64,000 nt of DNA from an uncultured delta proteobacterium (GTDB taxonomy: Bacteria; Desulfobacterota; Binatia; Binatales; Binataceae). How positions within the stretch are numbered: position 1 is the first letter of the stretch; every line of letters starts with the position of its first letter. A program made the position numbers and the translations under genes. The notes under the pieces are model-generated. The model ran no database searches. It saw only the letters and a program-made list of their open reading frames with translations, and was not told the DNA's origin. Below, in pieces: positions 36,914 through 55,436 of this stretch. The DNA lies in the NCBI GenBank assembly GCA_963724765.1, contig CAVRVY010000002.1, positions 384,001 to 448,000 on the forward strand, in the 5' to 3' direction.

Positions 36914-36938
36914 TCACAGCAGGGAGCGACGAAGAACA

Positions 36939-37301: not shown

Positions 37302-37392
37302 TCCGACGGGTATGTGGTTTTCAGACGTTTTTCCTATTTTGCCATTATGGTAACATGGATTGCGTGGGCGGCGTCCAGAGGAGACTGGGTTC

Positions 37393-38005: not shown

Positions 38006-38213
38006 GACCGCACATTCCCGCGCCATTGGCTCCGGTCCGGCGCCTATCCTGATATACGATCCACGCCTAAGCGATCTACGCTCTTCAAAAGCGCGCTCGA
38101 GGAGATAGTGCTCTAGCAGATTGCGCAGTTGACCCTCGCCTCGCGCGGGGTGTAAACCGCAGTTGGCCGCGCACGCATTCAAACAACGCTCAATCGAAAG
38201 GCGGTTTTATACA

Positions 38214-39254
38214 ATGAAAGCTGCGGTTCTTCACGACTACGATGAGGCTCTGAAGCGATCCGACTTCGTTCGTTACGAGGAAGTGCCGGAGCCGAAAATC
38301 GAAAAGCCCACCGACGTGATCGTGCGCATCGGCGGCGCCGGCGTGTGCCGCACCGACCTTCATGTGATCGAGGGGCTGTGGCGCAGCATGATTCCGGTCA
38401 ACCTGCCTTACATCATGGGGCACGAGAACGCGGGCTGGATCGAGGAGGCCGGTAGCGCGGTCGAAGTCGTCAAGCGCGGCGACCCGGTTATCTGCCATCC
38501 GCTGGCTAGCAGCGGCGAAACGCTGGCCGCGCGCCGCGGCAACGACATGCACGGCGGCGGAACGTTTCCGGGGCTGGACTCCAATGGCGGCTATGCGGAA
38601 TTGCTCAAGACCAGCGTGCGCGCGCTGATCAAGCTGCCGCAGACGCTCGCACCCAAGGACGTAGCACCCCACGCCGACGCCGGTATCACCGCGTACCACG
38701 CGGCCAAAAAAGCCTCGCGCCACCTGCTGCCCGGCGAATGGGCGGTGGTGATCGGCGCGGGCGGCCTGGGCCATATTGGCATCCAGACCCTGCGTGCGTT
38801 GTGCGCGGCGTCGATCATCGCGGTCGACCGCTCAGACCTCGCGCTAGGGCTCGCGCGCGAATGCGGCGCCGATCACACCGTCAAGGCCGACGGCAACGAG
38901 GTCGAAGCGGTGCAGCGGCTCACCGGCGGCACTGGCGCGCAGGCGGTAATCGACTTCGTGGGCGAGGGCAACGCGGTCGCCAACGGACTCAAAATGACCG
39001 CCAATGCCGGCTACTACTACGTCGTGGGTTATGGCGGCAAAATCGAAATACCCACGATGGAGATGGTCGCCACCGAAAAAACCATCGTGGGCAACCTGGT
39101 CGGCACCTATCCCGACCTCGTCGAACTGATGGCGCTCGCCGATCGCGGGAAGGTGAAGCTCGCGACCCAGGAATACCGGCTGAGCGAGGCGAATAACGCC
39201 CTGCACGATCTTGTGGCGGGCAAGGTCAAGGGCCGCGCGGTGCTGATTCCGTAA
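38214..39254 (+). CDS. Zn-dependent NAD(P) alcohol dehydrogenase
   Basis: GVCRTDLH, GHENAG, GAGGLGH, GRAVLIP. Confidence 0.92.
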   Translation: MKAAVLHDYDEALKRSDFVRYEEVPEPKIEKPTDVIVRIGGAGVCRTDLHVIEGLWRSMIPVNLPYIMGHENAGWIEEAGSAVEVVKRGDPVICHPLASSGETLAARRGNDMHGGGTFPGLDSNGGYAELLKTSVRALIKLPQTLAPKDVAPHADAGITAYHAAKKASRHLLPGEWAVVIGAGGLGHIGIQTLRALCAASIIAVDRSDLALGLARECGADHTVKADGNEVEAVQRLTGGTGAQAVIDFVGEGNAVANGLKMTANAGYYYVVGYGGKIEIPTMEMVATEKTIVGNLVGTYPDLVELMALADRGKVKLATQEYRLSEANNALHDLVAGKVKGRAVLIP

Positions 39255-40631: not shown

Positions 40632-41309
40632 TCAGCCTTTACGCCGCCGCCGCAGTCTAAGCCGCCGCCATCCGCCGAACACCGCCCCCGCGAGCAGACC
40701 CACCAGCGCGGCATCGCCCCAGGTGCGCCCGCGATTCCAGGCTTCCCCGCCGGCGGCGGGCGCGAGCTGGAAGGTGGGACTCATCCGAACCATCACGACG
40801 TGGCAGTCAAAGCAGGCCATCCGGCGCAGGGGATGAGTTATACCACCGTGCCAGAAGGCCTCGTCATGGCATTGGAGACAGGCCCGGTTGTTGCGCTCAA
40901 TCGACTGTCCGCGATCGATTCGGAACTCCGCCATCCCTCCGACGCCTAGGCCGCCGCCCGATTCGGCGTGATCGCTGGCCGGCCCATGGCATCCCTCGCA
41001 ACCCTTGCGCTCGAGGTCGTTTTGCGGCTTGACCAGGAATAGCCGGCCCATCTTGGTGCGGGCGAATTCGAGCGACAACTCCTGGTGGCAGGCGTAGCAG
41101 TACACGGTGCCGACGTAGTGGGGTGGCCGCCGCCTGGCGCCGGAGCTTTCAGTTGTCACGCCGCCCGGGTTGGCTTGCGCCACGGTGCTGTCCGGCGCGG
41201 CCAAGGTCTCGCCGAGCGGCACAAGCGCGAATGCCAACAGCGACAGCGCCAAGGCGCCGATGATAAAGCTTGCCGGTGTCGCGCGGACGGCTATTCGATT
41301 TTTATTCAT
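40632..41309 (-). CDS. Tetraheme cytochrome c (resembles N-half of DmsE/MtrA) with C-terminal membrane anchor
   Basis: Signal peptide; CYACH, CEGCH, CLQCH, CFDCH; C-terminal hydrophobic helix followed by RRLRLRRRRK. Confidence 0.85.
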   Translation of the reverse strand: MNKNRIAVRATPASFIIGALALSLLAFALVPLGETLAAPDSTVAQANPGGVTTESSGARRRPPHYVGTVYCYACHQELSLEFARTKMGRLFLVKPQNDLERKGCEGCHGPASDHAESGGGLGVGGMAEFRIDRGQSIERNNRACLQCHDEAFWHGGITHPLRRMACFDCHVVMVRMSPTFQLAPAAGGEAWNRGRTWGDAALVGLLAGAVFGGWRRLRLRRRRKG

Positions 41310-41565
41310 CGGCCGAGCCGTATCGCGCTCCACGCGCGCGATCGGGTGACAGCCGGTTCTGACCTCTTTGCCGCCGTTCGTCAACGGTTTGCCCAACCCA
41401 TCGATGCAGTCAGGAGCTTCTTGCCCGGTTCCAGCGTTCATTGTCCGGTAGGCATTGATGGGGCCGGTGCTTGGCGACAGCGTCTAGATCAGTTATGCGT
41501 TGGGACCGGTTAAATGGTTTTCTTTGAGGGTCCGAACTGAGCAAAGTCGGCTTGAATAATTTTGA

Positions 41566-41593: not shown

Positions 41594-41818
41594 ATTGTTA
41601 AGCGACCGTGCGGTAGGTTTGCGCCGAGGAATCAGGATATTAGCCGCGGGAGCGCCGCGAATTAATTTTTTGAAGTTTGATTTCGCGCGACGAGGTGCTG
41701 CAAGAAGCCGTGTGCGATCGGCTTGGACAAGCTGCCTTTGTGTCGGGCAAGCGCCCGGCGGCCTAGCATTCTGATCGGCCTTTGGGAGGCTGGAACTGAG
41801 AATTTGGCAAGCTTTAGT

Positions 41819-41834
41819 TGGCATCTGCATTGCT
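41819..41834 (+). promoter_or_regulatory. Sigma54 (-24/-12) promoter
   Basis: TGGCATCTGCATTGCT: GG-N10-GC spacing matches TGGCAC-N5-TTGCW; 87 bp upstream of ATG 41921. Confidence 0.75.
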
Positions 41835-41920
41835 TCGGGCTGAGCGAATTGAACAAGAGATTAAGGTCTTCGTTAAATTCCCGTGACGAGAGACCTCTAT
41901 ACGGGGAAGGGGTTATAGCC

Positions 41921-43291
41921 ATGGCTCGACGTTTAATCGCCGTCGCCGGATTGTTAGGCGTCGCTCTGTTGCTGGGGGCAATGCCCTCGCCGGCGCATGC
42001 GCAGCCTGCTCCCTGGCAGGCCGAGAAGGGGTACGAGAACGGAATTCCGATCGGCACCAAGATCACTCAGGCGAACTGGCAGCAATACCAGCAGTTTATG
42101 CCCGAGAGCATGATCCATCTTTTCAAGGGCGACCTCTTCTGGCACATGCCGGCGAATGTCGAGATCGACGTCGGTCCCACGCGTCACATTTTCCCGCCCA
42201 AGCCGTTCAATGAAGACACCGAGAAGTACGGCAGCCAGACGTCGTTGGTGAAGACCTCGGATGGCGGCTACCTGCCGAAGGGCTACGTTGGCGGATTCCC
42301 GTTCGCCAATCCGTTCACGGGCGATAAATCCGAAGTGGGCGCGAAGATGTACTACAACAACTACTACCGCCCCGCCCCGGTCGTGGAGGAGGCCCCCAAC
42401 TGCTCCTACACCCTGGACAAGTACGCAAACTTCACCCGCACTGCCGACTCGAACATCGTCTTTTCACAGCTCACCCATCTGAGTGAGCCTGGGTATCCGC
42501 GGGAATTGCCGGGCAACAATGGCTACTTCTTCGCTGCATATTTCGAGCAGACCGCTCCCGAGCAGGGTAAGTATTTCGCCTCGCTCGACATGACCTGGAA
42601 CGACCCGGCCGTGCTGGATGAGCTTTACGAATACATCCCGAGCCTCAGGCGCTCACTGCGTGTCTCCCAGGCGGCGCGTTGCGCACCGATCTTCGGTACC
42701 GACATCGTGTACGAAGACGCCCAGGAAGGGGCTCCGCGGATGGGGAACCTGTTCAACAACGTGTACCTCGGTGAAAAGAGAATTCTCAACCTCATGCACG
42801 GAGCTCCCGCCAGCTTCGATACCTGCGGCACGCCTACCTCGCTCGATCCCCGGTATTATTACTTTGGCCTCAAAGGCGTGGTGCCGTTCCCCAATCCAGG
42901 CTCGGGTGAATGGGAAGTCCGCAATGTGTATATGGTGGAGATGACGCGGCTTCCCGCGGTCTCTCGCGGTTACTGTTACGGTAAGCGCCTGCTGTACCTC
43001 GACAAGGAGAACTATTTCCCTGACCAGACCGAGGTTTGGGACCGGGCGGGGAATCTTTACAAATGGATTGTGGTGCTTGCCTACCCGGCGATTCTCCCGG
43101 GTCTTGGCCTGGAGGGCCAGGAAGTGACGATAACCGGACCGAACACCGCGTATGTCGTGAATTTCCAGGATGAGCACGCGACCGTTTTTATCGGTCTGCA
43201 CGTATGCGTGGACCACGAGTGCGACGCCCAGGGGTTCTCGAACGTTGATCGGTATGCGCAGCCTGACGGCCTGATGAAGATTATGCAGTAG
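41921..43291 (+). CDS. DUF1329 domain periplasmic protein
   Basis: Signal peptide; IT.AN, GGFPF.NP, YIPSLRRSLR, YCYGKRLLYLDKE, WDRAGNLYK. Confidence 0.85.
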   Translation: MARRLIAVAGLLGVALLLGAMPSPAHAQPAPWQAEKGYENGIPIGTKITQANWQQYQQFMPESMIHLFKGDLFWHMPANVEIDVGPTRHIFPPKPFNEDTEKYGSQTSLVKTSDGGYLPKGYVGGFPFANPFTGDKSEVGAKMYYNNYYRPAPVVEEAPNCSYTLDKYANFTRTADSNIVFSQLTHLSEPGYPRELPGNNGYFFAAYFEQTAPEQGKYFASLDMTWNDPAVLDELYEYIPSLRRSLRVSQAARCAPIFGTDIVYEDAQEGAPRMGNLFNNVYLGEKRILNLMHGAPASFDTCGTPTSLDPRYYYFGLKGVVPFPNPGSGEWEVRNVYMVEMTRLPAVSRGYCYGKRLLYLDKENYFPDQTEVWDRAGNLYKWIVVLAYPAILPGLGLEGQEVTITGPNTAYVVNFQDEHATVFIGLHVCVDHECDAQGFSNVDRYAQPDGLMKIMQ

Positions 43292-44464
43292 ATGGGCCGG
43301 CAGGACGGTGCGGCTCAGCGAAAGGGCGCGCGTAGCGCGTGGGAACGTTTGATGGGCTTGGTGTCGCCTGAAAAGGCAGAACTGCCCGCCTCGCATTCGG
43401 ACCAGGCCCGGGGCAAGGAACAGACCCCGCGAGCGCTCCGATGCAGTCTGTCGGCACTGGTACTGATGGCGGCGGCTGTGATGTTGGTGTTTCCAATCGC
43501 GGTGGCCGCGGCCCCCGCCCCCGCTGCGGACAACAGCTCGAACCTGGCCCGGCCTTGGGATTCATTCTTCAGCGTTGCGTATCTGCCCTCTGGCAAATGC
43601 TACGTCGTCGGAGCGGAGGGCGCGCTGCTGACCTCGACCGATGGTGGACAGAACTGGCAGCGGCGCGCGATCGCCGAGCGCGGCGATCTATCCTGGTCCG
43701 ACCTCTACAGCATCCGTTTCGCCAGCGACGGGCAGACCGGATGGATCGGCGGTGAGGGCGGGCTGATCCTCAAAACTACCGATGGCGGCCAGACCTGGAA
43801 CCCTCAGACGAGCGGCACCACTGAGAACATCTTTCGCATCGCGGTGGTCGACCCGCGAACCGCTTATGCTTCCGGCTCCAACGGCCTGCTGATGGGCACA
43901 ACTGATGGCGGTGCGCACTGGCAGTCGCAAACCCTCAAGAGTGGTCTCATCTTCATGGATATCGCGTTCGCCGACGCGCAGAACGGATGGGCGGTGGGCG
44001 AGTTCGAGACGATCATGCATACCGTCGACGGCGGTAAGACGTGGACCGCGCAGATGGGCGGCAAGCGGGCCAACTTCAAACTGCCGGCGCTGTTTGCGAT
44101 TAGCTTCAGCGACGCGCAACACGGATGGGCGGCGGGGCAGGGCGGCACGCTTCTGCGTACTGACAACGGCGGCGCAACCTGGCAACCCTTTGCCTCACCT
44201 TCAGCGTCCCCGATGTATAGCGTCGCTTACGCTGGCGGGACGTCAGGCTCCGCGCCGTCGGAGTTGTGGGGCTCCGGCGAAGGCGGCGTGCTGCTGGGCG
44301 TCGGGCTTGGCGGCGCCGCCGCACCCGTCGTGAAGACGCCAACGGTGTTCGATCTGGCCGACGTCGCGTTCAATGGACAAAATGGTGTCGCGGTCGGGCT
44401 TGGCGGCACAATCGTGCACACCGCCAACGGCGGCGCACATTGGGAAGTGGTGACAGGAAAGTGA
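43292..44464 (+). CDS. YCF48-like BNR-repeat beta-propeller protein
   Basis: Repeated G..G.(I/L)L.T.DGG..W units; start uncertain. Confidence 0.88.
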   Translation: MGRQDGAAQRKGARSAWERLMGLVSPEKAELPASHSDQARGKEQTPRALRCSLSALVLMAAAVMLVFPIAVAAAPAPAADNSSNLARPWDSFFSVAYLPSGKCYVVGAEGALLTSTDGGQNWQRRAIAERGDLSWSDLYSIRFASDGQTGWIGGEGGLILKTTDGGQTWNPQTSGTTENIFRIAVVDPRTAYASGSNGLLMGTTDGGAHWQSQTLKSGLIFMDIAFADAQNGWAVGEFETIMHTVDGGKTWTAQMGGKRANFKLPALFAISFSDAQHGWAAGQGGTLLRTDNGGATWQPFASPSASPMYSVAYAGGTSGSAPSELWGSGEGGVLLGVGLGGAAAPVVKTPTVFDLADVAFNGQNGVAVGLGGTIVHTANGGAHWEVVTGK

Positions 44465-46854
44465 TGGGCCGGTTCATACTGCGCTATCGCGCGATAATCG
44501 GGATAGCCTTGCTGGTGATCACGGGCATCTTTGGCTACTACGCGAGCAAGCTCACGATCGGCACCAGCTTCATCGACTTTTTTCCCAAGAACCACCCCTA
44601 CGTCAAGCTCTACCACGAATACGAACGCTACGGCGGCGCGCAACGGCTGACCCTGATGGTTCAGGTCAAGCACGGGGACATCTTCAACTATAAGACGTTA
44701 AGAAAAATCCAGGACATCAGTTACGACGTCGACCTGCTGCCCGACGTCAACCACCAATCGATCCGCTCATTGGGATCCTTCCGTGTGCGATACGCGGTCG
44801 CGCTGCCGGGCAATCTCGTCTACAAGGCCTACATGTATCCCAACGTCCCGACCACGGGGGCGGGGATACAGGAGATCAAGCGCGAAATTTTCATCCATCG
44901 CCTGGAGATGCGCAGTCTGGTGAGCGATGACGGGCGCAGTGCGGCGATCATGGCCTCGTTCTATGAGGGCCGGCTCAACTATCGCGAGGTCTTCAACAAG
45001 ATCCAGGCGCTCATAGCCAAGTACCAGGATGACAACACGGTCATCTATGCCGCCGGCGAACCGATGATCCGCGGCTACGGGTATTACTACCTGCCCATGC
45101 TCGTGACGATCTTCTTCATCTCTGACGGCATCATGATCCTGATCCTATACATCTTCTTCAGAGGCCGCAGCACCTGGTGGGCGCCGCTCATCACCGGCCT
45201 GTTGTCGACCGTCTGGGGCCTCGGATTCATCGGGATGCAGGGCTACGAGTTCGACCCGGTGATGCTGGTCATACGATTTATATTGACCGCCCGCGATATG
45301 AGCCACGGCATCCAGTGGCAGGGCCGCTATTACGACGAGCTTGAAACGCACGGCCACGACAAGATGGCCGCGTGCGAAGTAACGACCACCCTGATGCTGC
45401 CGCCGGGCTTGCTCGCGATCCTGGCCGACATCGCGGGCATCGTCTTCATCTCCTTCGGCGGCATCCCGTCGCTCCAGCACGTGGCCTCCTCGGGTGCGGT
45501 ATGGCTGGGCGGCAGTCTCACGATGGTCTTCATCTTCCAGCCGATCATGATGAGCTATCTGCCTACGCCCAAGCCACTGCCGCCGGCTAAGGCGAAGCGG
45601 GGATGGCTGACGTTGGTCGAGGACAAGCTGGTCGAATTCCCGATCACGCCCGGCTATGCGCGCGAGGGTGCTTTGATAGCAGTCGGCGTGCTGATCGTTG
45701 TGGGTTTCGTCGCAGGTGTTCGGGCCAAAATCGGCTATACGGAACCGGGCACGCCGCTTTACCGGCACAATGCCAAAGTCAACCAGGATATCAATGCGGT
45801 GCGGCAGGTGTTCCCGCTGGATGAGGGATGGCTAATCGTGCGGGCGCGAGCGTCGACTACTATCAGCGCCGCCTACACGCCCGATATGCTCGCGCCCGAC
45901 GTGATCCGGCTGCAGCGTGACCTCGGACGCTTCCTGCTGGAGGATCCTAAGGTCTCGAGCATTATTTCGGTCGCGCCGGACATAATCGAGCCGTACAACC
46001 AGATGTTCCACTACGGCTATCCGAAATACCTGGCGGTGCCGCGCACCGCAGACGACGCGATGGGCCTGTACTTCCTGTTTATGCAGGGGACTGCGCCGGG
46101 AGAGGCCGAGCAATGGATCAACTTAAACACCAACGACGGAATCCTGCGCGTGCTGCTCGCGGATCACACTTACCAGACGCTCAATAACATCCAGGCGCGG
46201 CTGGCCGAATTCGTCCGCCGGCGTGCCAAATGGGATCCGGCGTACAAGAAAGTCGAGATCGTGTACTTGGGCGGCGTAGCGGGCCTCTATGCCGCGGCCA
46301 ATGATGTGCTCTACCAACTCGACTTCATCAACATCACGTTTGTGCTCGGCGTGGTCTTCCTGTTCTGCGCCGTAGTCTACCGCTCGCTGGTGGCCGGAGT
46401 GTTGTTCGTGGTGTCCTGTATCGCGGCGAACTTTTCTGCGTTTATCTACATGCGGCTGGCGGATATCGGCATCACGATTGACACGATACCGGTTATCTCG
46501 CTGGGTATCGGTCTGGGCGTGGACTACGGTATCTACGCGGTCTCCCGCATCTGCGACGAGTGCGCCGAGGGCAGGCGGCTGGAGGATGCCATCACGACCG
46601 CGCTAAGAGGCACCGGCGCCGCCGTGCTGGCGACCTTTTCGGTCATCGTCGGCGGCTTGGCGCCGTGGGTATTTTCCCCGGTGCTGTTCCATAACGAGAT
46701 GAGCGTATTGCTGATTATCCTGATGTCGACCAATGTGATCGTGGGGCTTTTGATACTACCGGCGTATATAGCGTGGGCGCGCCCGCGCTTCATTTTCGGT
46801 GGCGTTGCGGAGGAAGAGTTACGCAAGGAAACGATGGCTGCGGCTTCAAATTGA
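44464..46854 (+). CDS. MMPL/RND family transporter
   Basis: Two TM blocks with large periplasmic loops; GIGLGVDYGIY, A..TGAAV. Confidence 0.88.
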   Translation: MGRFILRYRAIIGIALLVITGIFGYYASKLTIGTSFIDFFPKNHPYVKLYHEYERYGGAQRLTLMVQVKHGDIFNYKTLRKIQDISYDVDLLPDVNHQSIRSLGSFRVRYAVALPGNLVYKAYMYPNVPTTGAGIQEIKREIFIHRLEMRSLVSDDGRSAAIMASFYEGRLNYREVFNKIQALIAKYQDDNTVIYAAGEPMIRGYGYYYLPMLVTIFFISDGIMILILYIFFRGRSTWWAPLITGLLSTVWGLGFIGMQGYEFDPVMLVIRFILTARDMSHGIQWQGRYYDELETHGHDKMAACEVTTTLMLPPGLLAILADIAGIVFISFGGIPSLQHVASSGAVWLGGSLTMVFIFQPIMMSYLPTPKPLPPAKAKRGWLTLVEDKLVEFPITPGYAREGALIAVGVLIVVGFVAGVRAKIGYTEPGTPLYRHNAKVNQDINAVRQVFPLDEGWLIVRARASTTISAAYTPDMLAPDVIRLQRDLGRFLLEDPKVSSIISVAPDIIEPYNQMFHYGYPKYLAVPRTADDAMGLYFLFMQGTAPGEAEQWINLNTNDGILRVLLADHTYQTLNNIQARLAEFVRRRAKWDPAYKKVEIVYLGGVAGLYAAANDVLYQLDFINITFVLGVVFLFCAVVYRSLVAGVLFVVSCIAANFSAFIYMRLADIGITIDTIPVISLGIGLGVDYGIYAVSRICDECAEGRRLEDAITTALRGTGAAVLATFSVIVGGLAPWVFSPVLFHNEMSVLLIILMSTNVIVGLLILPAYIAWARPRFIFGGVAEEELRKETMAAASN

Positions 46855-46948
46855 ATCGGGGATGCCGCCGCTGCATCCGCACGCCGCAAGGACGCGGCGG
46901 CGCGGCAAGCGGCGCGGCACGCGGCCACGAGCCTCGGGAGGGGTAGGT

Positions 46949-48694
46949 ATGAAACCCATTCTAAAAAGCCGTTCCGGACTGCTTTTGGCGGTGGCTATGA
47001 TGATCGCGCTGGCGTGCCTCGGCGCGACAGGAGGTTCGGCGCTGGCGCAGACCGCCGGTGGCGGTTCTCAGCCGCCGGCTGTGCCGCTTTGGAAGAGCGC
47101 CGTGCTGGGCAGCAGCGCGCCGTTCATCGACGTAAGTGAGCAACCGGGGTGGTTGCAGGGCCTGTCAGTCTCGGGCTTTATCAGCAATACCACCGGGATG
47201 TGGGTCGATTCCGCCGGTATCCGCTATCAGAAGAGCAAGAATTCGCTGGCCACCGAGCGCAACTGGGTCCAGTTGGACCTCAACTACATACTCAACGGCG
47301 ACAACCGGTTTTTCATTCGCGGATGGGGTGTGTACGAGCCGCCCTACCCATTCGAGTACAAGGCCGGCATGACCGACATGTCGGATTACTACAACCAGTA
47401 CAACGTCAGGGACGCGTACTGGAAGAACACCACCGGACCGCTGACGTTTTTTGTAGGCCGCCAGATCGTGACCTGGGGCGAGTCGCTGGCCTTCCGTGTG
47501 GGCGACGTGATCAACCCGCAGGATTTTACCTGGAACTTCGGCTTCTCCAACCTCGAGCAGTCGCGCTTGCCGTTGTGGATGGTGCATCCGATCCTGAACC
47601 TCCCGAGCTGGGGGCCATTGGGCAACAACTTCATCGAGGGAGTTTGGACGCCGGCCTGGCAGCCGATGTATAACCCCTCGGTCGATACTCCGAATCAGGA
47701 TTCCAATCCCCACAGCAACTGGTATGACGGCCAGCACGACGTCGCCGGTTCGGTTTCGCTGCTTGCGCCGTTCACTTTGGTCTCGGCGGCTCGGTTCCAG
47801 GTCCAACCCTACCCGCTGCTGTTCGGGACGCCCGGCGTTCCGGCAAACATGACGGCCTTTCCGCAGCTGCGAGGGTCCAGCTTTGCTCCGCCGTTCTTCT
47901 CCTATCACCTGCCGAGCGATACGCTAGGCAGTTCAACCGAAGGCTTCCGAATCCATACGCTGGTGAAGAACGCTGAGATCACGCTGCTCTATTGGCATGG
48001 TCATCAGTTCAACGAGGGCGGGACGCCGGGCGCGCCATTCTACGTCATGGGCAGCCCTTCCACGGGCCAGTACCTGCAGGCCTACTTTCCCCAGTTCAAC
48101 GACATCGGCGCGACGCTGAACCGGCCGATTTATCTGCCCGGTGAAATTCTCTCAAGCGTACCGATCGTGCTCAGGACCGAGGCGGTGTGGCAGGACCGGA
48201 CACCGTTCAACACCACCGACGTGTCGGTAACCAACGGGGTGGTCGATAAGAACACGATCAATTCACTCGTCGCGCTGGACCTGGACGGCCTCTATGCGCC
48301 GTGGCTGACCAAGACCGGTACGCTGAGCGGCAACCTCGAATGGAACCAGTACACGATCGTGGGCTATGGCAAAAGCCTGGTCTACGATTTCTATGCTGAA
48401 CGCTATCGCCACAACGAAGAGCAGCTCCTGATCAGCGTCAACACGAGCTGGTGGTGGGGCGCGATCTTGCCAACTTACACCATGATCTGGAATCCCTCTG
48501 GCGACACCTCGCTGCTGTTCCCGACCCTGGTGCTGACGCCGCCCTGGACCAACAAGTACTTCGCCACTCTCGGCTACGTCGGCATCCTCGGCAATGACAA
48601 GTTCAACTCGTTTTCCGGCGGTGTCTTCAAGGGCAAGAGCATTCTGTATATGCAGTTCCAGTACAACTTCCAGCCCGTCAAAGGACGCAGCTGA
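46949..48694 (+). CDS. DUF1302 family outer-membrane beta-barrel protein
   Basis: Signal peptide; RDAYW, VGRQIVTWGES..FRVGD.INPQD, C-terminal QFQYNF. Confidence 0.85.
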   Translation: MKPILKSRSGLLLAVAMMIALACLGATGGSALAQTAGGGSQPPAVPLWKSAVLGSSAPFIDVSEQPGWLQGLSVSGFISNTTGMWVDSAGIRYQKSKNSLATERNWVQLDLNYILNGDNRFFIRGWGVYEPPYPFEYKAGMTDMSDYYNQYNVRDAYWKNTTGPLTFFVGRQIVTWGESLAFRVGDVINPQDFTWNFGFSNLEQSRLPLWMVHPILNLPSWGPLGNNFIEGVWTPAWQPMYNPSVDTPNQDSNPHSNWYDGQHDVAGSVSLLAPFTLVSAARFQVQPYPLLFGTPGVPANMTAFPQLRGSSFAPPFFSYHLPSDTLGSSTEGFRIHTLVKNAEITLLYWHGHQFNEGGTPGAPFYVMGSPSTGQYLQAYFPQFNDIGATLNRPIYLPGEILSSVPIVLRTEAVWQDRTPFNTTDVSVTNGVVDKNTINSLVALDLDGLYAPWLTKTGTLSGNLEWNQYTIVGYGKSLVYDFYAERYRHNEEQLLISVNTSWWWGAILPTYTMIWNPSGDTSLLFPTLVLTPPWTNKYFATLGYVGILGNDKFNSFSGGVFKGKSILYMQFQYNFQPVKGRS

Positions 48695-48740
48695 GGCTTA
48701 GGCAGGAATCGTAGGTTGGACCTGCAAGGGAGTAAGTGAG

Positions 48741-49895
48741 ATGGCGAAACGGACCGTATTCATCATCGCAATCCTGCTCGCCCTGTCGGCCTGGTGTAGG
48801 TCCGGCGCGCTGGCCCAGATGCCGCCTGAGGAGGGCGTCAAGGTACGCGAGTTGCCGCTGCCCGGACCACACTGGGTATTCGTGATGAATCCGTTCAGCG
48901 GCACGCTGGAAGTCACCAGCGTGTTCGTCATCGACGGCGATTCGCTCCAGGTGCTTGGTCAGATGACCGGTGGAGTGGTCAGCGCATTCGCGATCGCGCC
49001 GGACCACAAGCAGTTCTACATGGCCGACACTTACTACTCGCGCGGCGCGCGCGGCGATCGCACTGACGTACTGACTATCTATGAGGCGCGTCACCTGGCG
49101 CCGGTCGGTGAAGTGATTCTTCCGACCAAGCGCCAGCTTTCGATACCCGACAGCTCGCAGCTCTCGGTCACGCCGGACGGCCGCTTCGTATTGGTCGCCA
49201 ATCTGACTCCAGCGACGTCGGTTAGCGTGGTCGATATCCAGAACCGCAGCGTCGCCGGCGAGATCGAAACTTCCGGATGCGCCGAAGTCCTGATCGCCGG
49301 GCCGCGCCGCTTCGTTTCCATTTGCAGCGACGGCACGATGATGACCACCGAATTCAACGACAACGGCAAGGCGACGGCGCAAAAGCGCACCGCCAAGCCG
49401 TTTTTTGACATCGAGAAGGATCCTGTCTTCGGGGTGCCGGCGCGAGTTGGCGACGACGCCTACTTCGTCAGCTATCATGGGATGGTCTACCCGATGAACC
49501 TCGGGGCGAACCCGGCCGAGCCGGGCCAGTCCTGGTCGTTGCTCAGCGACAGCGAAAAGACGGCGGGATGGTTGCCGGGCGGCTATCAGCCGATTTGGGC
49601 CAACGCCGCCAAGGGCTTGCTGTTCGTCCTGATGCATCGCGGCGGCGGCGACTGGACGCATAAGAACCCGGGCACCGAAGTGTGGGTGTACGACGTGAAG
49701 ACACAAAAGCGGGTCGACCGGATCGCGCTGCCGCAGAAGGCCAACTCCATTCTGGTCACCCAGGACGATGCCCCGACGCTGTTCGCCCTGAGCACGATGC
49801 CCGCCATGATGCAGGCGTTCTCCGCACTGGACGGCAGGTATCTCGGCGCGATCCAGGATCTGTCGGGTGTCCCGTGGGAGATGTTCGGGCTCTGA
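48741..49895 (+). CDS. mauB: TTQ amine dehydrogenase large (heavy) subunit
   Basis: Signal peptide; ADTYYSRGARGDRTDV, NLTPATSVSVVD, WLPGGYQ, THKNPGTEVWVYD. Confidence 0.92.
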   Translation: MAKRTVFIIAILLALSAWCRSGALAQMPPEEGVKVRELPLPGPHWVFVMNPFSGTLEVTSVFVIDGDSLQVLGQMTGGVVSAFAIAPDHKQFYMADTYYSRGARGDRTDVLTIYEARHLAPVGEVILPTKRQLSIPDSSQLSVTPDGRFVLVANLTPATSVSVVDIQNRSVAGEIETSGCAEVLIAGPRRFVSICSDGTMMTTEFNDNGKATAQKRTAKPFFDIEKDPVFGVPARVGDDAYFVSYHGMVYPMNLGANPAEPGQSWSLLSDSEKTAGWLPGGYQPIWANAAKGLLFVLMHRGGGDWTHKNPGTEVWVYDVKTQKRVDRIALPQKANSILVTQDDAPTLFALSTMPAMMQAFSALDGRYLGAIQDLSGVPWEMFGL

Positions 49896-49927
49896 TGATT
49901 GAGCTTTAAAGTTACGCACGGAGAGCG

Positions 49928-50476
49928 ATGCCTCAGATCGACCCAGTACTCGTATGGATGGCCGTGGTCTCGGCTGCGGCCATCTTCGTCGCGTCGGGGG
50001 CGCTCAAGTTCTATGACCTCGAAACCTTTCGCGGCGCGGTGACCAATTACCGCCTGATTCCCGAGTGGCTCGCGACGCCCTTTGCCTGGACGGCGCCGGT
50101 GATCGAGTGCGCCGCGGCGCTGGGCCTGCTGCTGAGCCCGATCCGTGAGTCCGCGGCGCTGGTGTTGATCGTGCTGCTCGGGGTCTTCACGGGTGCGATC
50201 GTTATCAATCTCGCGCGCGGCCGTACCGATATCGACTGCGGATGCTTCGGCCCGGCACTGCGCCAGCGGCTGAGCTGGTGGCTGCTGTTGCGCAACGCAG
50301 CGCTGTTTGCGCTGCTCGCGATCGCTCTGATGCCCGCCGGTGCGCGAGCCATGGACTTTCTCGACCTCGCGACCGCCGGCATGGCGGCTGCCACGGTGGT
50401 GGTGCTCTATACTGCCGCCAACTATCTAATCGCGAACGCCCCCGGGCTTCGCGCGCTGGGTGCGCTAAATGCTTGA
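49928..50476 (+). CDS. mauE: Methylamine utilization protein MauE
   Basis: TMs; GALK, NLARGRTDIDCGCFG, LLRN. Confidence 0.92.
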   Translation: MPQIDPVLVWMAVVSAAAIFVASGALKFYDLETFRGAVTNYRLIPEWLATPFAWTAPVIECAAALGLLLSPIRESAALVLIVLLGVFTGAIVINLARGRTDIDCGCFGPALRQRLSWWLLLRNAALFALLAIALMPAGARAMDFLDLATAGMAAATVVVLYTAANYLIANAPGLRALGALNA

Positions 50477-51191
50477 AGCGTTGGTGATTTCGCAGATTCT
50501 GCTGTGGGCGCTGGTGCTGGCGATGGCGCTGATGATGCTCGCGCTGTTGCGCCAGGTCGGCGTCCTGCACGAGCGGATCGCGCCGATGGGCGCGCTTACG
50601 CTGGACCGCGGGCCCAAGGAGGGCGAGGCCGCGCCGCTGTTCGAGGTCAAGGACCTGCGCCGCGGCACGCCGCTCAAGATCGGCGGCGCACGCGGCCGCA
50701 GCATGCTGCTCTTTTTCCTCTCCCCGACCTGTCCGGTATGCAAGAAACTGCTGCCGATCGTCAAATCGATCCAGCAGTCCGAGAACTCATGGCTCGACGT
50801 GGTTCTGACCAGCGACGGCGAACCGGTCGAGCACGAACGCTTCATCCGCGTGCAGCATCTCGAAGACTTCCCCTACGTGCTCTCGGCCGACGTCGGCATG
50901 ACCTACCGGATCGGCAAGCTTCCCTACGGCGTCATGATCGACGACTCGGGTGTGATCCGGGCCAAGGGATTGCTCAACACGCGCGAGCACCTGGAGAGCC
51001 TGATCGAGGCCAAGCAGATGGGTGTTCCATCGATCCAGCAGTTCCTTCAATCTAGGCAGCCCGAGGGCCACGAACCGCACGATCACCCGCACGACGATGG
51101 ACACGATCACTCGCACGATCGTGTAGATGACCACGCGAACAACCACGAAGCCCCATCGCTTGCCGCAACCGGCAAGAGCGGACGCAAATAG
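50469..51191 (+). CDS. mauD: Methylamine dehydrogenase accessory protein MauD, with His-rich tail
   Basis: RQVGVLHERIAPMGAL, SPTCPVCKKLLP, KLPY, KGLLNTREHLESL. Confidence 0.95.
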   Translation: MLEALVISQILLWALVLAMALMMLALLRQVGVLHERIAPMGALTLDRGPKEGEAAPLFEVKDLRRGTPLKIGGARGRSMLLFFLSPTCPVCKKLLPIVKSIQQSENSWLDVVLTSDGEPVEHERFIRVQHLEDFPYVLSADVGMTYRIGKLPYGVMIDDSGVIRAKGLLNTREHLESLIEAKQMGVPSIQQFLQSRQPEGHEPHDHPHDDGHDHSHDRVDDHANNHEAPSLAATGKSGRK

Positions 51192-51218
51192 GCCGAAAGA
51201 CGGGCAAGGAGACGAACA

Positions 51219-51746
51219 ATGGACTCCCTGATGGAACAGCTGACCCGCACGGTCGCGCAGCGCACTTCGCGCCGTGGCTTCCTGGCCCGGATGGGCAAAT
51301 TGATGCTCGGGGGGATGGTCCTGCCGCTTTTGCCAATCGATCGCGTGATGGGGAGCGCACAGGCGCAGATGACGATGGGTGCGACCGGCACCGGACGCAC
51401 TGACGATCCCTCGACCTGCGACTACTGGCGCTATTGCGGCTTCGATGGGAACCTATGCGGCTGCTGCGGCGGCAGCCATACCGAGTGCCCCGCCGGCACT
51501 ATCATGTCGCCGACCTCGTGGGTGGGCACCTGCCGGGATCCCAACGACGGCAAGGAATACATAATTGGCTATCGCGACTGTTGCGGCAAAGACGTATGTG
51601 GCCGCTGCTTTTGCGAAAATAACAAGGGCGACATGCCCATTTACCGGACTCAACTGGATAACGGAGTCATCTGGTGCTTCGGAACAAAACCTTCATCCTA
51701 CGTCGTCAACTGCACGACGGCCGTCCGACTCGGTCTCAAAACCTGA
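51219..51746 (+). CDS. mauA: TTQ amine dehydrogenase small subunit, copy 1
   Basis: Tat motif TSRRGFL; CDYWRYC, SWVGTC, YRDCCG, VIWCFG (both TTQ Trp present). Confidence 0.93.
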   Translation: MDSLMEQLTRTVAQRTSRRGFLARMGKLMLGGMVLPLLPIDRVMGSAQAQMTMGATGTGRTDDPSTCDYWRYCGFDGNLCGCCGGSHTECPAGTIMSPTSWVGTCRDPNDGKEYIIGYRDCCGKDVCGRCFCENNKGDMPIYRTQLDNGVIWCFGTKPSSYVVNCTTAVRLGLKT

Positions 51747-52231
51747 GTCCTCGTACCTGGCTGATTGCGGCCGCGTGCGCGGTCGTGCTCTCGGCGGGCG
51801 CAGCCACCGCGCAGGCGGACGGCCACAACGTCTTCATCTCGAATTGCGCCGTATGCCATCAGCCCGACGGCAAGGGCGCGCCCTCGGTTTATCCGCCGCT
51901 GGCCGACTCGGTAGGCCGCTATGTGGCGCTCAAGGATGGCCGCGCCTACATTATCGACGTGGTGTCGTTCGGGATGGGCGGCAAGATCGAATCCGACGGC
52001 GACAGGTTCGAGGGCGACATGCCGCCGTGGCCGCAGTTGAGTGACCAGGACGTCGCCGAGGTGCTCACCTACGTCCTGACGGGCCTCAATTCCAAGCTGC
52101 TGCCCGCGGATTTCAAGCCGATCTCCGCGGACGAAGTCAAAGCGGAGCGCGCCAAGCAGCTTACCGCCGCCGGCATCCATGCCGAGCGCGAATCGCTGCT
52201 TAAAAAGCTGGACAGCAAGGCCGCGAAGTAG
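51743..52231 (+). CDS. Monoheme cytochrome c (probable CTG start overlapping the mauA stop)
   Basis: Signal peptide ending AQA; CAVCH; GDMPPW distal Met; LSDQDVAEVLTYV. Confidence 0.85.
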   Translation: MSPRTWLIAAACAVVLSAGAATAQADGHNVFISNCAVCHQPDGKGAPSVYPPLADSVGRYVALKDGRAYIIDVVSFGMGGKIESDGDRFEGDMPPWPQLSDQDVAEVLTYVLTGLNSKLLPADFKPISADEVKAERAKQLTAAGIHAERESLLKKLDSKAAK

Positions 52232-52245
52232 GACGCGCGCCTGCG

Positions 52246-52722
52246 ATGAAACCGCGCGCTATCGCCGTGCTGATCGCCGCGCTCTCGATTGCGAGCACCG
52301 CGCTGGCCGGCGGCTCGCCGGCCGAGCTGTACACGCTCAACTGCTGGGGCTGTCACAAGCCACGCGCCGAAGGCATACCCGGCACCGTTCCGCGCCTGGC
52401 GGACTCGATGGCGGATTTTCTGCATGTGCCCGGCGGACGCGAGTATCTTGTCGAGGTGCCGGGCGTAGCGGCCTCTGCGCTGAGCGATGCCGAAATCGCG
52501 CAGGTGCTCAACTGGCTGCTCTTCAACTTCAACAAGGCCGAGATGCCAGCGGATTTTAAACCTTACACCGCTGCCGAGATCGCACGGGTCCGGCCGCATC
52601 AACTGATTCGCATTACCGAAACCCGCGACGACCTGGTCAAACGGCTAAAGGCCAAAGGCATAATCGTCCCCGACGACCAGCTTGCGGGCGAGGCGCTCGC
52701 GACCCCGCTCGCGCAGCACTAA
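52246..52722 (+). CDS. Monoheme cytochrome c
   Basis: Signal peptide; YTLNCWGCH, GREYLVEVPGV, LSDAEIAQVLNW. Confidence 0.88.
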   Translation: MKPRAIAVLIAALSIASTALAGGSPAELYTLNCWGCHKPRAEGIPGTVPRLADSMADFLHVPGGREYLVEVPGVAASALSDAEIAQVLNWLLFNFNKAEMPADFKPYTAAEIARVRPHQLIRITETRDDLVKRLKAKGIIVPDDQLAGEALATPLAQH

Positions 52723-52867
52723 CGGAAGGTGCCCGGGCCGCGGGGCCGCGTGGCGGAGCAACTGGCATCGCGGGGCGGGCGATGCTACTGGAAACGCTGG
52801 CAGGAGCGCAGCGGGAACCGGCCTTGGGGATTCCGGGGGCGCGCCTGGCGAAACAGGAGACGGGCGA

Positions 52868-53389
52868 ATGGACGCACTGGTGGAACGTCTTTCACGAACG
52901 GTGGCGCAGCGGACCTCGCGGCGCGGCTTTCTGGGCTACCTGGGCAAGGCGCTGGTGGGCGGGATGATGATTCCGCTGCTGCCGATCAACCGGGTGGTGG
53001 AACAGGCGCAGGCGCAGATGAGCGAGGGGCCCACGGCGGAGGGCGAGGGGGGCGATCTGACGAGTTGCGATTACTGGCGCTACTGCGGCTTCGACGGCTA
53101 CCTGTGCAGTTGCTGCGGCGGGGCGCTGACTTCGTGTCCGCCGGGGACGGTGGCGTCGCCGACCTCGTGGGTGGGGACGTGCCAGCATCCGACCGACGGC
53201 AAGGAATACATCATCGCGTACCGGGACTGCTGCGGTAAGGACGTATGCAACCGCTGCTTCTGCGACAACAACAAGGGGCAGGTGCCGATCTACCGGCCGC
53301 AGTTGGACAACGACATCATCTGGTGCTTCGGGGCCAAGAACTTCGCCTACCACTGCACCACGGCGATCCGATTGGGCGTCAAAACCTGA
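52868..53389 (+). CDS. mauA: TTQ amine dehydrogenase small subunit, copy 2
   Basis: AGGAG RBS; Tat motif TSRRGFL; SWVGTC, YRDCCG, NDIIWCFG, YHC. Confidence 0.93.
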   Translation: MDALVERLSRTVAQRTSRRGFLGYLGKALVGGMMIPLLPINRVVEQAQAQMSEGPTAEGEGGDLTSCDYWRYCGFDGYLCSCCGGALTSCPPGTVASPTSWVGTCQHPTDGKEYIIAYRDCCGKDVCNRCFCDNNKGQVPIYRPQLDNDIIWCFGAKNFAYHCTTAIRLGVKT

Positions 53390-53460
53390 CCGCTTGGCTT
53401 AGGCTGTACTTTCTGACCAGCGCGCGCCGCTGAGCGCGCCGGCGCGCGGCCGCAACCGGT

Positions 53461-54888
53461 ATGGACGAACGCAAATTCGCCGAGGCCCTGGAACGTGCGT
53501 CCGCGTGGGTCGTGCGCTACTTCGAGCGTACGCGCGAGTTCCCCGTGCTGTCGCAAGTGCACCCGGGCGAGGTCGCCGCCGCGATGGGGCCCGCGATGCC
53601 GGAGGAGGGCGAAGACTTCGACGCCCTGCTCGACGACTTCGAGCGCATCGTGGTCCCCGGCATCACGCACTGGAACCATCCGCGCTTTTTCGCCTACTTC
53701 TCGATCACCGGCTCGGAGCCGGCCGTGCTGGCCGAGTTGCTCGCCGCAGCGCTCAACGTCAACGGGATGCTGTGGCGGACCTCGCCGGCGGCGACCGAGG
53801 TCGAGGAGGTCGCGCTCAAGTGGCTGCGCGACGCGCTGGGCCTGCCGCCGAGCTTCTTCGGTGTGGTGTACGATACCGCCAGCGTCTCGGGGCTGCATGC
53901 GCTGGCGGCCGCGCGCGAGTCGCTCGGGCTTGACGTGCGCAATCTCGGCACTGCGGGTCGCGATCTTCCGCGCCTGCGCGTCTACTGCACTGACCAGACC
54001 CACTCGCACATAGAGAAGGATGCGATCCTGCTCGGCGTGGGCCGCGAAAACGTGGTCAAGATCGCAACCGACGGTGCGTTCAGGATGGACCCGGCAGCGC
54101 TCGACCGCGCGATCGCTGAGGATCTCGCGCGCGGCTTTTTGCCGATGGCCGTGGCGGCAACGGTGGGCACCACCTCGACCACCTCGGTCGATCCGGTCGC
54201 CGCGATCGCCGAGGTCTGTCGCGCGCATCGCATATGGCTGCACGTCGACGCCGCCTACGCCGGGCCCGCGGCGATCGTGCCGGAGTTGCGCTGGCTGCTC
54301 GACGGCGCCGCGGCGGCCGACTCGCTGGTGGTCAATCCGCACAAGTGGATGTTCGTGCCAGTCGATCTTTCGATCCTCTACACCCCGCATGAGCCGCTGC
54401 TGCGCCGCGCGTTCAGCCTGATCCCGGCCTACCTCGAGACGCCCGAGAGCGAAGTGCGCAATTACATGGACTACGGCGTGCAACTGGGCCGGCGCTTTCG
54501 CGGCCTGAAGCTGTGGTTCGTGCTGCGCGCATACGGGCGGCGCAGGATGGTCGAGATAATCCGCAGCCACGTCGCCTGGGCGCAGGAACTGGCACGATGG
54601 ATCGGTGAGGCCGGCGATTTCGAAACCCTGGCGCCGCATCCGCTGTCGGTGGTCTGCTTCCGGCACCTGCCCGCGGGGCTTGCGCAAAGCCCCGGCGCGC
54701 TTGACCAGCACAATCAGCGCGTGGTCGACGAGATCAACCGCGGCGGCTTCGCGTTTCTCTCAACCACGCGGCTTAACGAACGCGTCGCGATACGCTTCGC
54801 GATCGGTAACGCGCGCACCACGGTCGCCGACCTGCGCGAGACCTGGGATCTGTTGCTGACCACCGCCCGTCGTCTCGCCAACGCCTGA
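53461..54888 (+). CDS. PLP-dependent group II (aromatic L-amino acid-type) decarboxylase
   Basis: PGITHWNHPRFFAYF, TSPAATEVE, HVDAAY, NPHKW (PLP Lys), LGRRFRGLKLW. Confidence 0.92.
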   Translation: MDERKFAEALERASAWVVRYFERTREFPVLSQVHPGEVAAAMGPAMPEEGEDFDALLDDFERIVVPGITHWNHPRFFAYFSITGSEPAVLAELLAAALNVNGMLWRTSPAATEVEEVALKWLRDALGLPPSFFGVVYDTASVSGLHALAAARESLGLDVRNLGTAGRDLPRLRVYCTDQTHSHIEKDAILLGVGRENVVKIATDGAFRMDPAALDRAIAEDLARGFLPMAVAATVGTTSTTSVDPVAAIAEVCRAHRIWLHVDAAYAGPAAIVPELRWLLDGAAAADSLVVNPHKWMFVPVDLSILYTPHEPLLRRAFSLIPAYLETPESEVRNYMDYGVQLGRRFRGLKLWFVLRAYGRRRMVEIIRSHVAWAQELARWIGEAGDFETLAPHPLSVVCFRHLPAGLAQSPGALDQHNQRVVDEINRGGFAFLSTTRLNERVAIRFAIGNARTTVADLRETWDLLLTTARRLANA

Positions 54889-55436
54889 TCGCGCGGCCCT
54901 TGCGACCCGCGAGCGTGGCGAACCGGGCGGGGCTCGGCCGACGCCACGCTGCTGGAGCGGATGCTCTCGGCGGCGGCCCTCTGCGACGGATCAATTGGCA
55001 GAGCTGGGGAGTGCCCAGCGCCGCTGCCGTTCGGCAACGCATCGCAGCCGCTGGCGCAACTCGTGGTTGCGATTCAGCGCTGGTTTGCGCCTGAAGCCGC
55101 GTGGCGTGACAATCAACAGTCAGGCGCGACGCTAGGCTGCATGACACGCGAGATAAAAACTTGCAAATCGAATAAGAATAAGATTGACAAATTAGAATCA
55201 AACCAGCGAAATAGAGGATCAAGAAAACTCGGCGGAATTCGCATGCGGTAGCTGCCTGGGATCGAACATCGCTTTTCTGATCCTTGAAGGAGACTGCTTC
55301 GGACGGTCTTTGTCTAGCAGATTGCGTCTATGAGGGGTTTAACTATTGTAAGAGGCGGAGACTTCTGATAAATGTCTCTGCGTTACGCTTTGATGCGGGC
55401 AGGGCAGCAAATTACTAGGTTAAAGGAAGGCGCACG

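Follow-up and report, generated by a model that had tools for sequence, protein, structure and literature searches.

A candidate sigma-54 operon in an uncultured Binataceae bacterium combines a tryptophan tryptophylquinone amine dehydrogenase, an AmeABCD-type envelope module and an aromatic-amino-acid-type decarboxylase

Introduction

In an uncultured bacterium of the Binataceae, the genes for a periplasmic tryptophan tryptophylquinone (TTQ) amine dehydrogenase stand between four genes for an envelope module and a gene for a pyridoxal 5'-phosphate (PLP) decarboxylase, which raises the question of whether these parts act together and on which amines. The locus lies within a 64-kb window, i.e., the whole stretch of DNA analysed, which corresponds to positions 384001-448000 of contig C2 in a 5.4-Mb genome of 4 contigs. 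Coordinates given without a contig or locus label refer to this window. An initial annotation, made from the sequence alone, proposed that the locus makes an aromatic amine in the cytoplasm and oxidises it in the periplasm, rather than serving methylamine use. By contrast, passages of Murphy et al. 2021 (PMC8262859) read the Binatota genes mauA and mauB as serving methylamine oxidation, with amicyanin as the proposed acceptor.

We find that the decarboxylase is kept beside TTQ dehydrogenase genes throughout several rearrangements within one genus, and that the dehydrogenase lacks the features which define methylamine specificity. A coupled route from amino acid to amine to aldehyde, in which the decarboxylase product would be a substrate of the dehydrogenase, is plausible, and we assign it a probability of about 0.5.

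Operon organization

Twelve plus-strand open reading frames (ORFs), all in one orientation, occupy positions 41921-54888. All twelve were assigned from the ORF list together with Pfam, NCBIfam and PDB matches, in the order DUF1329, YCF48/BNR, MMPL, DUF1302, MauB, MauE, MauD, MauA1, cytochrome c, cytochrome c, MauA2 and decarboxylase. The features of the locus are:

41744..41757, + strand: inverted repeat CGGGC-AAGC-GCCCG, candidate activator site, about 60-75 nt upstream of the -24 element; largely kept in relatives
41819..41834, + strand: sigma-54 type -24/-12 promoter element, TGGCATCTGCATTGCT; exact TGGCAY-N5-TTGCW, conserved in relatives
41921..43291, + strand: DUF1329 / LolA-like periplasmic protein, AmeB-like, with N-terminal signal peptide; PF07044 78.4 bits, PF17131 43.4 bits; start taken from the sequence
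43292..44464, + strand: YCF48/BNR beta-propeller protein, AmeC-like; PF14870 128.6 bits
44464..46854, + strand: MMPL / HAE3-family RND inner-membrane transporter, AmeD-like; PF03176 68.6 bits, TIGR00921 (HAE3) 119.9 bits, below cut-off
46949..48694, + strand: DUF1302 putative outer-membrane protein, AmeA-like; PF06980 34.2 bits
48741..49895, + strand: TTQ amine dehydrogenase heavy chain MauB; PF06433 164.1 bits, TIGR02658 179.8 bits
49928..50476, + strand: MauE membrane accessory protein; PF07291 102.9 bits, no close second copy in a genome-wide tblastn search
50469..51191, + strand: MauD thiol-disulfide accessory protein; TIGR02661 238 bits, above the cut-off of 188.6, the single match in the genome
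51219..51746, + strand: TTQ light chain MauA1, with SRRGFL twin-arginine-like leader; PF02975 154.1 bits
51674..52231 (start codon uncertain), + strand: mono-haem c-type cytochrome 1, CAVCH motif, signal peptide; PF00034 44.2 bits
52246..52722, + strand: mono-haem c-type cytochrome 2, CWGCH motif, signal peptide; PF00034 30.2 bits
52868..53389, + strand: second light chain MauA2; PF02975 167.2 bits
53422..53447, + strand: GC-only hairpin of 8 bp between mauA2 and the decarboxylase gene (gap of 71 nt), without a T-run after it; read from the sequence, not called as a terminator
53461..54888, + strand: cytoplasmic group II PLP decarboxylase, aromatic-L-amino-acid decarboxylase type; PF00282 297.5 bits

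Three of the starts deserve mention. The MMPL gene likely starts at 44464, where its ATG overlaps the stop codon of the YCF48 gene (TGATG), and the DUF1302 gene likely starts at 46949, with an ATG preceded by the ribosome-binding site GGGAGGGG. From a reading of the sequence, 52868 is the likely start of MauA2.

The initial annotation had placed the twelve genes behind a -24/-12 motif, and this observation was confirmed. Position 41819 is the first base of the element, which lies on the operon strand within a 480-bp intergenic gap, 87 nt upstream of the first ATG, and has GG and GC doublets ten bases apart, as in sigma-54 promoters. No other position of the window matches TGGCAY-N5-TTGCW exactly, and the expectation from shuffled sequences is 0.07 matches (6 of 100 shuffles contained at least one). 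When two mismatches are allowed, the motif is not enriched in the window (12 found vs. 24.8 expected); hence, the case for sigma-54 rests on position and conservation. Conservation was assessed in ten related loci fetched from close kin (L010-L019). The site is kept in all ten, with nine exact matches and a TCGC at -12 in L013, and the N5 spacer varies; where the envelope module is deleted, the promoter stands directly before mauB.

A single rpoN gene and about 28 sigma-54 activators are encoded in the genome. No activator gene lies inside the window, the nearest being at C2:466565, about 18.5 kb beyond the window end, and the inverted repeat at 41744-41757 may serve as the binding site of such an activator. 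No sigma-70-like promoter was called across 41300-56500, and no terminator-like site was called in any intergenic gap of the operon. None of the 22 sequencing runs listed is an RNA run, and 20 of the 22 contain part of the window. Judged by gene layout and promoter, the twelve genes are a genuine, probably co-transcribed sigma-54-driven operon, a lineage-specific composite of four known parts: an AmeABCD-like envelope transporter, an aau-like TTQ dehydrogenase cassette, a recently duplicated light-chain gene and an aromatic-amino-acid-type decarboxylase.

A structured leader RNA was also considered for the upstream region and dropped, as Rfam returned 0 matches (E up to 1) and the fold was no better than that of shuffled sequences (z = -0.85).

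Decarboxylase identity and linkage

Lacking a signal peptide, the decarboxylase is most similar, among solved structures, to DOPA decarboxylase 7xin (372.4 bits) and to the plant tyrosine and tryptophan decarboxylases (332.8-293.9 bits), and it scored far lower against glutamate, cysteine-sulfinate and diaminobutyrate decarboxylases; no curated NCBIfam equivalog was reached. The residues K295 (the PLP lysine, in NPHKW), H181, the loop tyrosine Y324 and G343 are all present, with Y324 aligned to residue 348 of 6eew and G343 to residue 370. From work on plant enzymes by Torrens-Spence et al. in 2020, a tyrosine at the Y324 position is said to mean true decarboxylation, and not aldehyde synthesis. 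The amine-generating decarboxylase of the initial annotation is therefore, by sequence comparison, an enzyme of the aromatic-L-amino-acid type. The glycine column is occupied by Gly in the solved tryptophan decarboxylases and by Ser in the poppy tyrosine/DOPA decarboxylase, yet it leaves the substrate unsettled, because the solved DOPA decarboxylase and tyrosine decarboxylase 1 also carry Gly.

An orthologue of this gene (83-96% identity) is found in 13 of the 16 other genomes of the genus, each time on the contig of a mauA gene and 70-1800 bp from it. Exceptions in the genus include G010, which has neither decarboxylase nor mauA, and G016, whose only decarboxylase is 30% identical. Among the ten fetched loci, the decarboxylase is adjacent in nine (the exception being L010): it directly follows cytochrome c2 in six, and an inserted mauA2 in three as well as in the window. 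The gaps between the decarboxylase and the preceding gene are of 24-297 bp, a range set by the six loci with cytochrome c2, and no terminator was called in them. G009 has the gene at a second locus, behind a mauB'-mauA' pair; the main operon of that genome, 188 kb away, contains neither the decarboxylase nor the envelope module. Within this one genus, the decarboxylase is thus kept beside TTQ dehydrogenase genes through several rearrangements.

Amine dehydrogenase type

When MauA1 is aligned to the light chains of methylamine dehydrogenase (MADH), both tryptophans which we take to be the TTQ-forming residues, i.e., the W of SWVG and the W of IWCFG, are conserved, and MauA2 has the same motifs. 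The TTQ dehydrogenase families named in the initial annotation were hence recovered, though not as a single MauB/MauA pair, since the operon has two genes for light chains and two for mono-haem cytochromes c.

MauB scored 179.8 bits with TIGR02658, vs. an equivalog cut-off of 454.45, and its three paralogues in the genome scored 181-213 bits. The best solved relative of MauB is the heavy chain of the Alcaligenes faecalis aromatic amine dehydrogenase (AADH), with 193.6 bits, compared to 145.1 bits for MADH. Against the same AADH chain, the P. aeruginosa "aauB" scored 160.7 bits and a Cupriavidus protein 149.1 bits, both less than MauB. For the light chain MauA1, the scores were 136-137 bits against MADH (180 for the full-length P. 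versutus chain) vs. 131 bits against AADH, which places it at a similar distance from the two. The light chains carry IWCFG as in MADH, whereas the A. faecalis AADH and the P. aeruginosa group carry NWCMAN; with AADH, they share extra cysteines (C-x-C-C-G-G and C-G-R-C).

Maximum-likelihood trees were computed for 16 heavy chains and 15 light chains, with the A. faecalis AADH left out. In both trees the Binatia sequences form a clade of their own, with support of 98/96 (heavy) and 83/84 (light), and the MADH clade (100/100) does not include them. This clade is sister to a group composed of MADH and a gammaproteobacterial metagenome-assembled genome (92/92 heavy, 96/93 light), and is apart from the P. 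aeruginosa-type clade. In comparison with the initial annotation, which had set MADH against AADH, the position outside the MADH clade agrees with its reading, while the sequences form a separate Binatia clade instead of joining AADH, whose A. faecalis sequence the trees do not include.

The column of MADH alpha-Phe55 was located at residue 86 of the P. denitrificans precursor, which fits a signal peptide of 31 residues; the alignment has a one-residue indel nearby. This column holds Phe in three of three MADH-type sequences; there, the four heavy chains of the genome carry Thr, Ser, Asn and Ser. From work by Zhu, Sun and Davidson in 2000, alpha-Phe55 reportedly restricts the pocket to small amines, and its replacement reportedly opens MADH to long-chain amines.

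The gene content of the cluster was compared to that of annotated plasmids (the Burkholderia arboris stretch carries no annotation). The order mauF-B-E-D-A-amicyanin-J-G is found in Paracoccus denitrificans and Methylobacterium, and mauF-B-E-D-A-mauJ, with no annotated amicyanin, in Indioceanicola. A second type, composed of B-E-D-A and one or two cytochrome c genes without mauF/C/J/G, is found in Cupriavidus, P. aeruginosa RW109, Haematobacter, Paracoccus SMMA_5 and Chimaeribacter. The Binataceae order, B-E-D-A-cytochrome c-cytochrome c, is that of the second, non-methylamine type: the cluster has no mauF, amicyanin, mauJ, mauG, mauM or mauN, and no amicyanin above cut-off was found genome-wide (best 34.4 bits vs. 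110.2).

From these comparisons, the dehydrogenase belongs to a lineage of its own; phylogeny does not reveal its substrate, and the features defining methylamine specificity are missing, so that a dedicated methylamine dehydrogenase is unlikely. Since the cluster belongs with the cytochrome-c-linked, non-MADH clusters and the heavy chain lacks the Phe which restricts MADH to small amines, the substrate may be larger amines.

Envelope module

All four AmeABCD-type families (DUF1302, DUF1329, COG4447/YCF48-like and HAE3 RND) are encoded in adjacent genes of the operon. According to passages of PMC6394551, AmeABCD of Castellaniella defragrans comprises a DUF1302 protein, a LolA-like DUF1329 protein, a COG4447/YCF48-like protein and an HAE3 RND protein, and acts in monoterpene efflux. 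A cofitness cluster of DUF1302, DUF1329, BNR and RND genes is described in parts of Price et al. (bioRxiv 10.1101/072470; see also 10.1101/2020.07.04.188060), and the poorly characterised quartet of the initial annotation matches it.

The module is present in seven of the ten related loci. Outside the genus, its occurrence near mauA was judged from twenty fetched loci of other families; the only content common to these loci is mauB-(E-D)-A and a cytochrome c2 homologue (19 of 20). In G018, a genome of another genus, a YCF48-MMPL-DUF1302 set is again found upstream of mauB-E-D, and an orthologue of the decarboxylase (77% identity) directly follows a second YCF48-MMPL pair. In a Cupriavidus plasmid, a DUF1302-MMPL-YCF48 set lies upstream of B-E-D-A-cytochrome c-cytochrome c-aldehyde dehydrogenase, its nearest end at 5 kb.

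The surroundings of the second pair in G018 are also of note. At 230-9549 of this locus (L024, G018:C35:77001-95000), co-oriented genes encode a Rieske ferredoxin, a Rieske ring-hydroxylating oxygenase, a two-domain extradiol dioxygenase, an amidohydrolase_2 protein, the YCF48-like protein, the MMPL protein and the decarboxylase.

Proposed route and alternatives

In the route we propose, the periplasmic TTQ enzyme would oxidise bulky primary amines (arylalkyl or other hydrophobic amines) to aldehyde and ammonium, and would pass two electrons to the adjacent c-type cytochromes and on to respiration. The decarboxylase would make such amines from aromatic amino acids in the cell, widening the substrate supply, and the presumed cargo of the RND module would be the amphiphilic amine or the reactive aldehyde, which it might carry through the envelope. 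Full catabolism and a partial oxidation that yields electrons and ammonium are equally likely.

A more specific version is a shunt that decarboxylates inside and respires outside. Proton-consuming decarboxylation would yield an arylethylamine that reaches the periplasm, where the TTQ enzyme would oxidise it via the two cytochromes c, with the RND module clearing or channelling the amine or aldehyde. We regard this version as doubtful, but worth stating for what it would imply: a harvest of energy and nitrogen from aromatic amino acids without ring degradation, evolved in one uncultured Binataceae genus of peat and soil, and Binatia mauAB genes that should not be read as markers of methylotrophy. 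More generally, a larger-amine substrate would alter the carbon and nitrogen roles assigned to the widespread soil and peat Binatota, and the presence of the poorly understood DUF1302/DUF1329/YCF48/RND transporter beside a defined periplasmic enzyme suggests a possible cargo for it. If the decarboxylase does feed the dehydrogenase, the result would be a two-step route across the membrane for which we found no described counterpart; a literature search returned no paper combining TTQ, decarboxylase and phenylethylamine.

Several results weigh against the coupled route, the first of which concern linkage. To examine it beyond the genus, a class sample of 201 genomes was used instead of a phylum sample, because the phylum is large and its sample was uninformative (mauA in 2 of 251 genomes). 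In the class sample, 85 genomes from 46 of 88 genera carry mauA, 81 of them outside the genus; the unpublished genome G447 is counted among these 85, and among the 184 genomes with DUF1302 mentioned below. None of the 81 has a decarboxylase match on the mauA contig within 100 kb, and none of the 20 mauA loci inspected from at least ten other families contains the envelope module or the decarboxylase. Orthologues of the decarboxylase with 53-56% identity are found mostly in a family in which 0 of 24 genomes carry mauA. Within the genus, one relative (L010, and G013) has mauA1 and mauA2 without the decarboxylase, and shared ancestry explains part of the linkage, as the relatives are close kin (83-96% identity). 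The co-occurrence that the initial annotation named as a check thus holds in the 13 genus genomes carrying the decarboxylase, and is absent from the other mauA-carrying genomes of the class sample.

The envelope module adds to these points. It is deleted in three of the ten related loci (L013, L017 and L019), and is also absent from G009. At L013:9640-10000, a deletion scar retains the first ~23 DUF1329 codons (a signal peptide stub), a stop and the last DUF1302 codons, followed by mauB; in L017 and L019, promoter and leader run straight into mauB. These absences are deletions, so the other genes of the operon can do without the module. Moreover, DUF1302 is found in 184 of the 201 class genomes, often in several copies, and its abundance means that chance adjacency of such a module is not rare. 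The rest of the operon is kept in some relatives from which the envelope module or the decarboxylase is missing.

The remaining points concern enzyme type and the fate of products. The light chains group on the MADH side of the tree and have the IWCFG motif instead of the NWCMAN of AADH. No bona fide mauG was found: a di-haem MbnH/MauG-like gene on contig C4 scored 209.1 bits with the MauG model (cut-off 443.85) and 221.5 bits with the MbnH model (cut-off 362.85), and the other match to the CCP_MauG domain, on contig C3, is weak (31 bits). The ten non-MADH plasmid clusters inspected likewise have no mauG nearby. The operon encodes no amino acid or amine carrier. In quick searches of the genome, the best PaaA match was partial and reached an unconvincing 54 bits, and homogentisate dioxygenase gave no clear match (22.7 bits). 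None of the about ten aldehyde dehydrogenase genes of the genome is on the operon contig. From these searches, a complete arylacetate carbon route is not evident.

The main rival draws on the same linkage results. It holds that the decarboxylase is a passenger, captured in the ancestor of the genus and with an unrelated role (acid stress, biogenic amine or secondary metabolite), and that the dehydrogenase oxidises environmental amines only. The restriction of the linkage to a single genus is what such a capture would leave, as are the one relative that lost the decarboxylase and kept the rest of the operon, the unrelated contexts in which decarboxylase orthologues stand in families without mauA, and the lack of an amine carrier in the operon. 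A passenger, however, would not readily account for adjacency in 13 of 13 genomes and in three arrangements, including the second TTQ locus of G009, while neighbouring genes were deleted, duplicated and inserted, nor for the short intergenic gaps without a called terminator. We therefore judge it rather unlikely, and the coupled route is preferred over it.

A methylamine dehydrogenase serving methylotrophy, with the other genes as unrelated neighbours, appears less probable still. It would agree with the published assignment of Binatota mauA and mauB mentioned in the Introduction. With respect to the equivalog cut-off of the MADH small subunit (196.85), MauA2 passes with 213.2 bits and MauA1 is just below with 196.2 bits, and in both trees MADH falls in the sister group of the Binatia clade. 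Yet the heavy chain is far under its own cut-off and closer to the solved AADH than to MADH, the cluster has none of mauF, amicyanin, mauJ, mauG, mauM and mauN, no amicyanin above cut-off was found in the genome, and the alpha-Phe55 position is not Phe. These results bear out the initial annotation in its view that the enzyme is not a classical MADH. Weakest of all is a biosynthetic operon. In this reading, tryptamine or phenylethylamine would be made from an aromatic amino acid and converted in the periplasm to an arylacetaldehyde or arylacetate, an auxin-like or phenylacetate-like product that the RND module would export. The decarboxylase Gly shared with solved tryptophan decarboxylases (Ser in the poppy enzyme), the quick searches without a ring-degradation route for phenylacetate or homogentisate, and the export by an AmeABCD-type pump in the one case studied in passages of PMC6394551 would suit it. 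However, catabolism or nitrogen scavenging agrees better with sigma-54 control and with the wiring to respiratory cytochromes, three of ten relatives do without the module, and the operon has no dedicated aldehyde dehydrogenase; we judge this reading very improbable.

Overall, the observation made in the initial annotation was confirmed, and its interpretation, the coupled amino acid-amine-aldehyde route, is partly supported.

Paralogues, second light chain and cytochromes

The genome has four heavy-chain genes, namely the operon copy, C2:289874-290962, C1:132325-133413 and an orphan at C1:478740-479864. There are also four light-chain genes, but a single mauE and a single mauD, both in the operon. 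Multiple copies of mauA are typical of the genus (usually 3 per genome), whereas the 81 mauA-carrying genomes outside it have one match each.

MauA2 and the light chain at C2:291120-291638 are 99.4% identical in protein and 95.7% in DNA (over 52735-53399). The two copies have 23 nucleotide differences, and the differing codons comprise 21 synonymous and 1 non-synonymous, which indicates that both copies are under purifying selection. From this comparison, MauA2 arose by a recent duplication of the light-chain gene in the second heavy/light pair (C2:289874-291638). It is present in four of the ten related loci. The orphan heavy chain is sister to the heavy chain of this second pair (100/100), and may therefore use the MauA2-type light chain of the operon.

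The orphan (C1:478689-479867) has no adjoining light chain; it follows an extracytoplasmic function sigma factor and an NrsF-like anti-sigma factor, and precedes a luciferase-like monooxygenase. Near the second heavy/light pair, C2:282864-287735 encodes an IS1595-type transposase, a phage-type repressor (S24 peptidase/helix-turn-helix) and a DnaA-C-like helix-turn-helix gene, and this content suggests a mobile or prophage-like neighbourhood.

The cytochrome c1 gene occurs in 1-3 tandem copies in relatives, with three in L011 and two, between mauA1 and cytochrome c2, in L010, L012 and L018. A cytochrome c2 homologue follows mauA in 19 of the 20 loci from other families of the class. The other neighbours of the mauA cassette in those families are heterogeneous and give no hint of substrate. 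In one of these loci (L044, G037:C3), an amino acid permease gene at 10686-11957 directly follows the mauB-E-D-A-cytochrome c cassette.

Neighbouring genes

Two genes upstream of the operon, and outside it, were compared with the related loci:

40632..41441, - strand: divergent multi-haem c-type cytochrome; weak NrfB-like and deca-haem family matches
38163..39254, + strand: Zn-dependent alcohol dehydrogenase; PF00107, PF08240

The multi-haem cytochrome is syntenic in nine of the ten related loci and in G009, and L019 has no match of half its length. The alcohol dehydrogenase is 91-94% identical in those related loci that reach that far. Upstream of it, at 35241-38005, are short signalling ORFs (MetOD1, PAS/HisKA without an ATPase domain match, receiver and MEDS), which may be fragments of one sensor system. 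A sulfatase (642 aa) and an adjoining sulfotransferase are encoded on the minus strand at 29971-32981.

On the other side, conserved synteny stops at the decarboxylase in the related loci. The G+C content drops to 0.54 just past this gene (55000-56400), and the ORF at 55437-56384 matches neither Pfam nor NCBIfam families and is without a counterpart in the ten related loci.

Comparison with known systems

Periplasmic oxidation of phenylethylamine and tyramine is carried out in enterobacteria and pseudomonads by the copper amine oxidase TynA and by quinohaemoprotein amine dehydrogenase, and lactic acid bacteria have decarboxylase-antiporter systems that generate proton motive force. The likeness lies in the oxidation of an amine to an aldehyde outside the cytoplasm, or in the coupling of decarboxylation to energy conservation, and the difference in the use of other enzymes and cofactors. 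We know of no such periplasmic amine-oxidation or decarboxylase system with the decarboxylase and the periplasmic dehydrogenase in one operon.

With the aromatic L-amino acid decarboxylases (7xin, 6eei, 6eew, 6khn and 6eem), the enzyme of the operon shares a full-length alignment (299-372 bits), the NPHKW lysine, the loop tyrosine and the histidine. It differs from them in sitting in an operon with periplasmic redox genes, and reaches no NCBIfam equivalog.

The MADH mau cluster has in common with the Binataceae operon the B-E-D-A core, the TTQ tryptophans and a MauD above its equivalog cut-off. In the Binataceae operon, however, mauF, amicyanin and mauJ, G, M and N are absent and cytochromes c are encoded as electron acceptors; the heavy chain (179.8 vs. 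454.45 bits) and the non-Phe residue at the alpha-Phe55 position set the enzymes apart as well.

AADH/aau-like clusters resemble the operon in that they encode both subunits of a TTQ enzyme together with MauE and MauD, have cytochrome c genes next, and lack mauF/C/J/G. For A. faecalis itself, the gene order of the aau cluster was reportedly described by Chistoserdov in 2001; a literature search on aauA/aauB returned nothing useful. AADH also provides the best solved relative of the heavy chain, and the extra light-chain cysteines are common to both. The Binatia light chains nonetheless carry IWCFG, the heavy chains form a separate clade, and none of the ten plasmid clusters inspected contains a decarboxylase.

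Finally, AmeABCD and the envelope module consist of the same four protein families, which are arranged in the order B-C-D-A here vs. A-B-C-D, and in the Binataceae genus the module is placed inside an amine dehydrogenase operon, from which some close relatives have deleted it.

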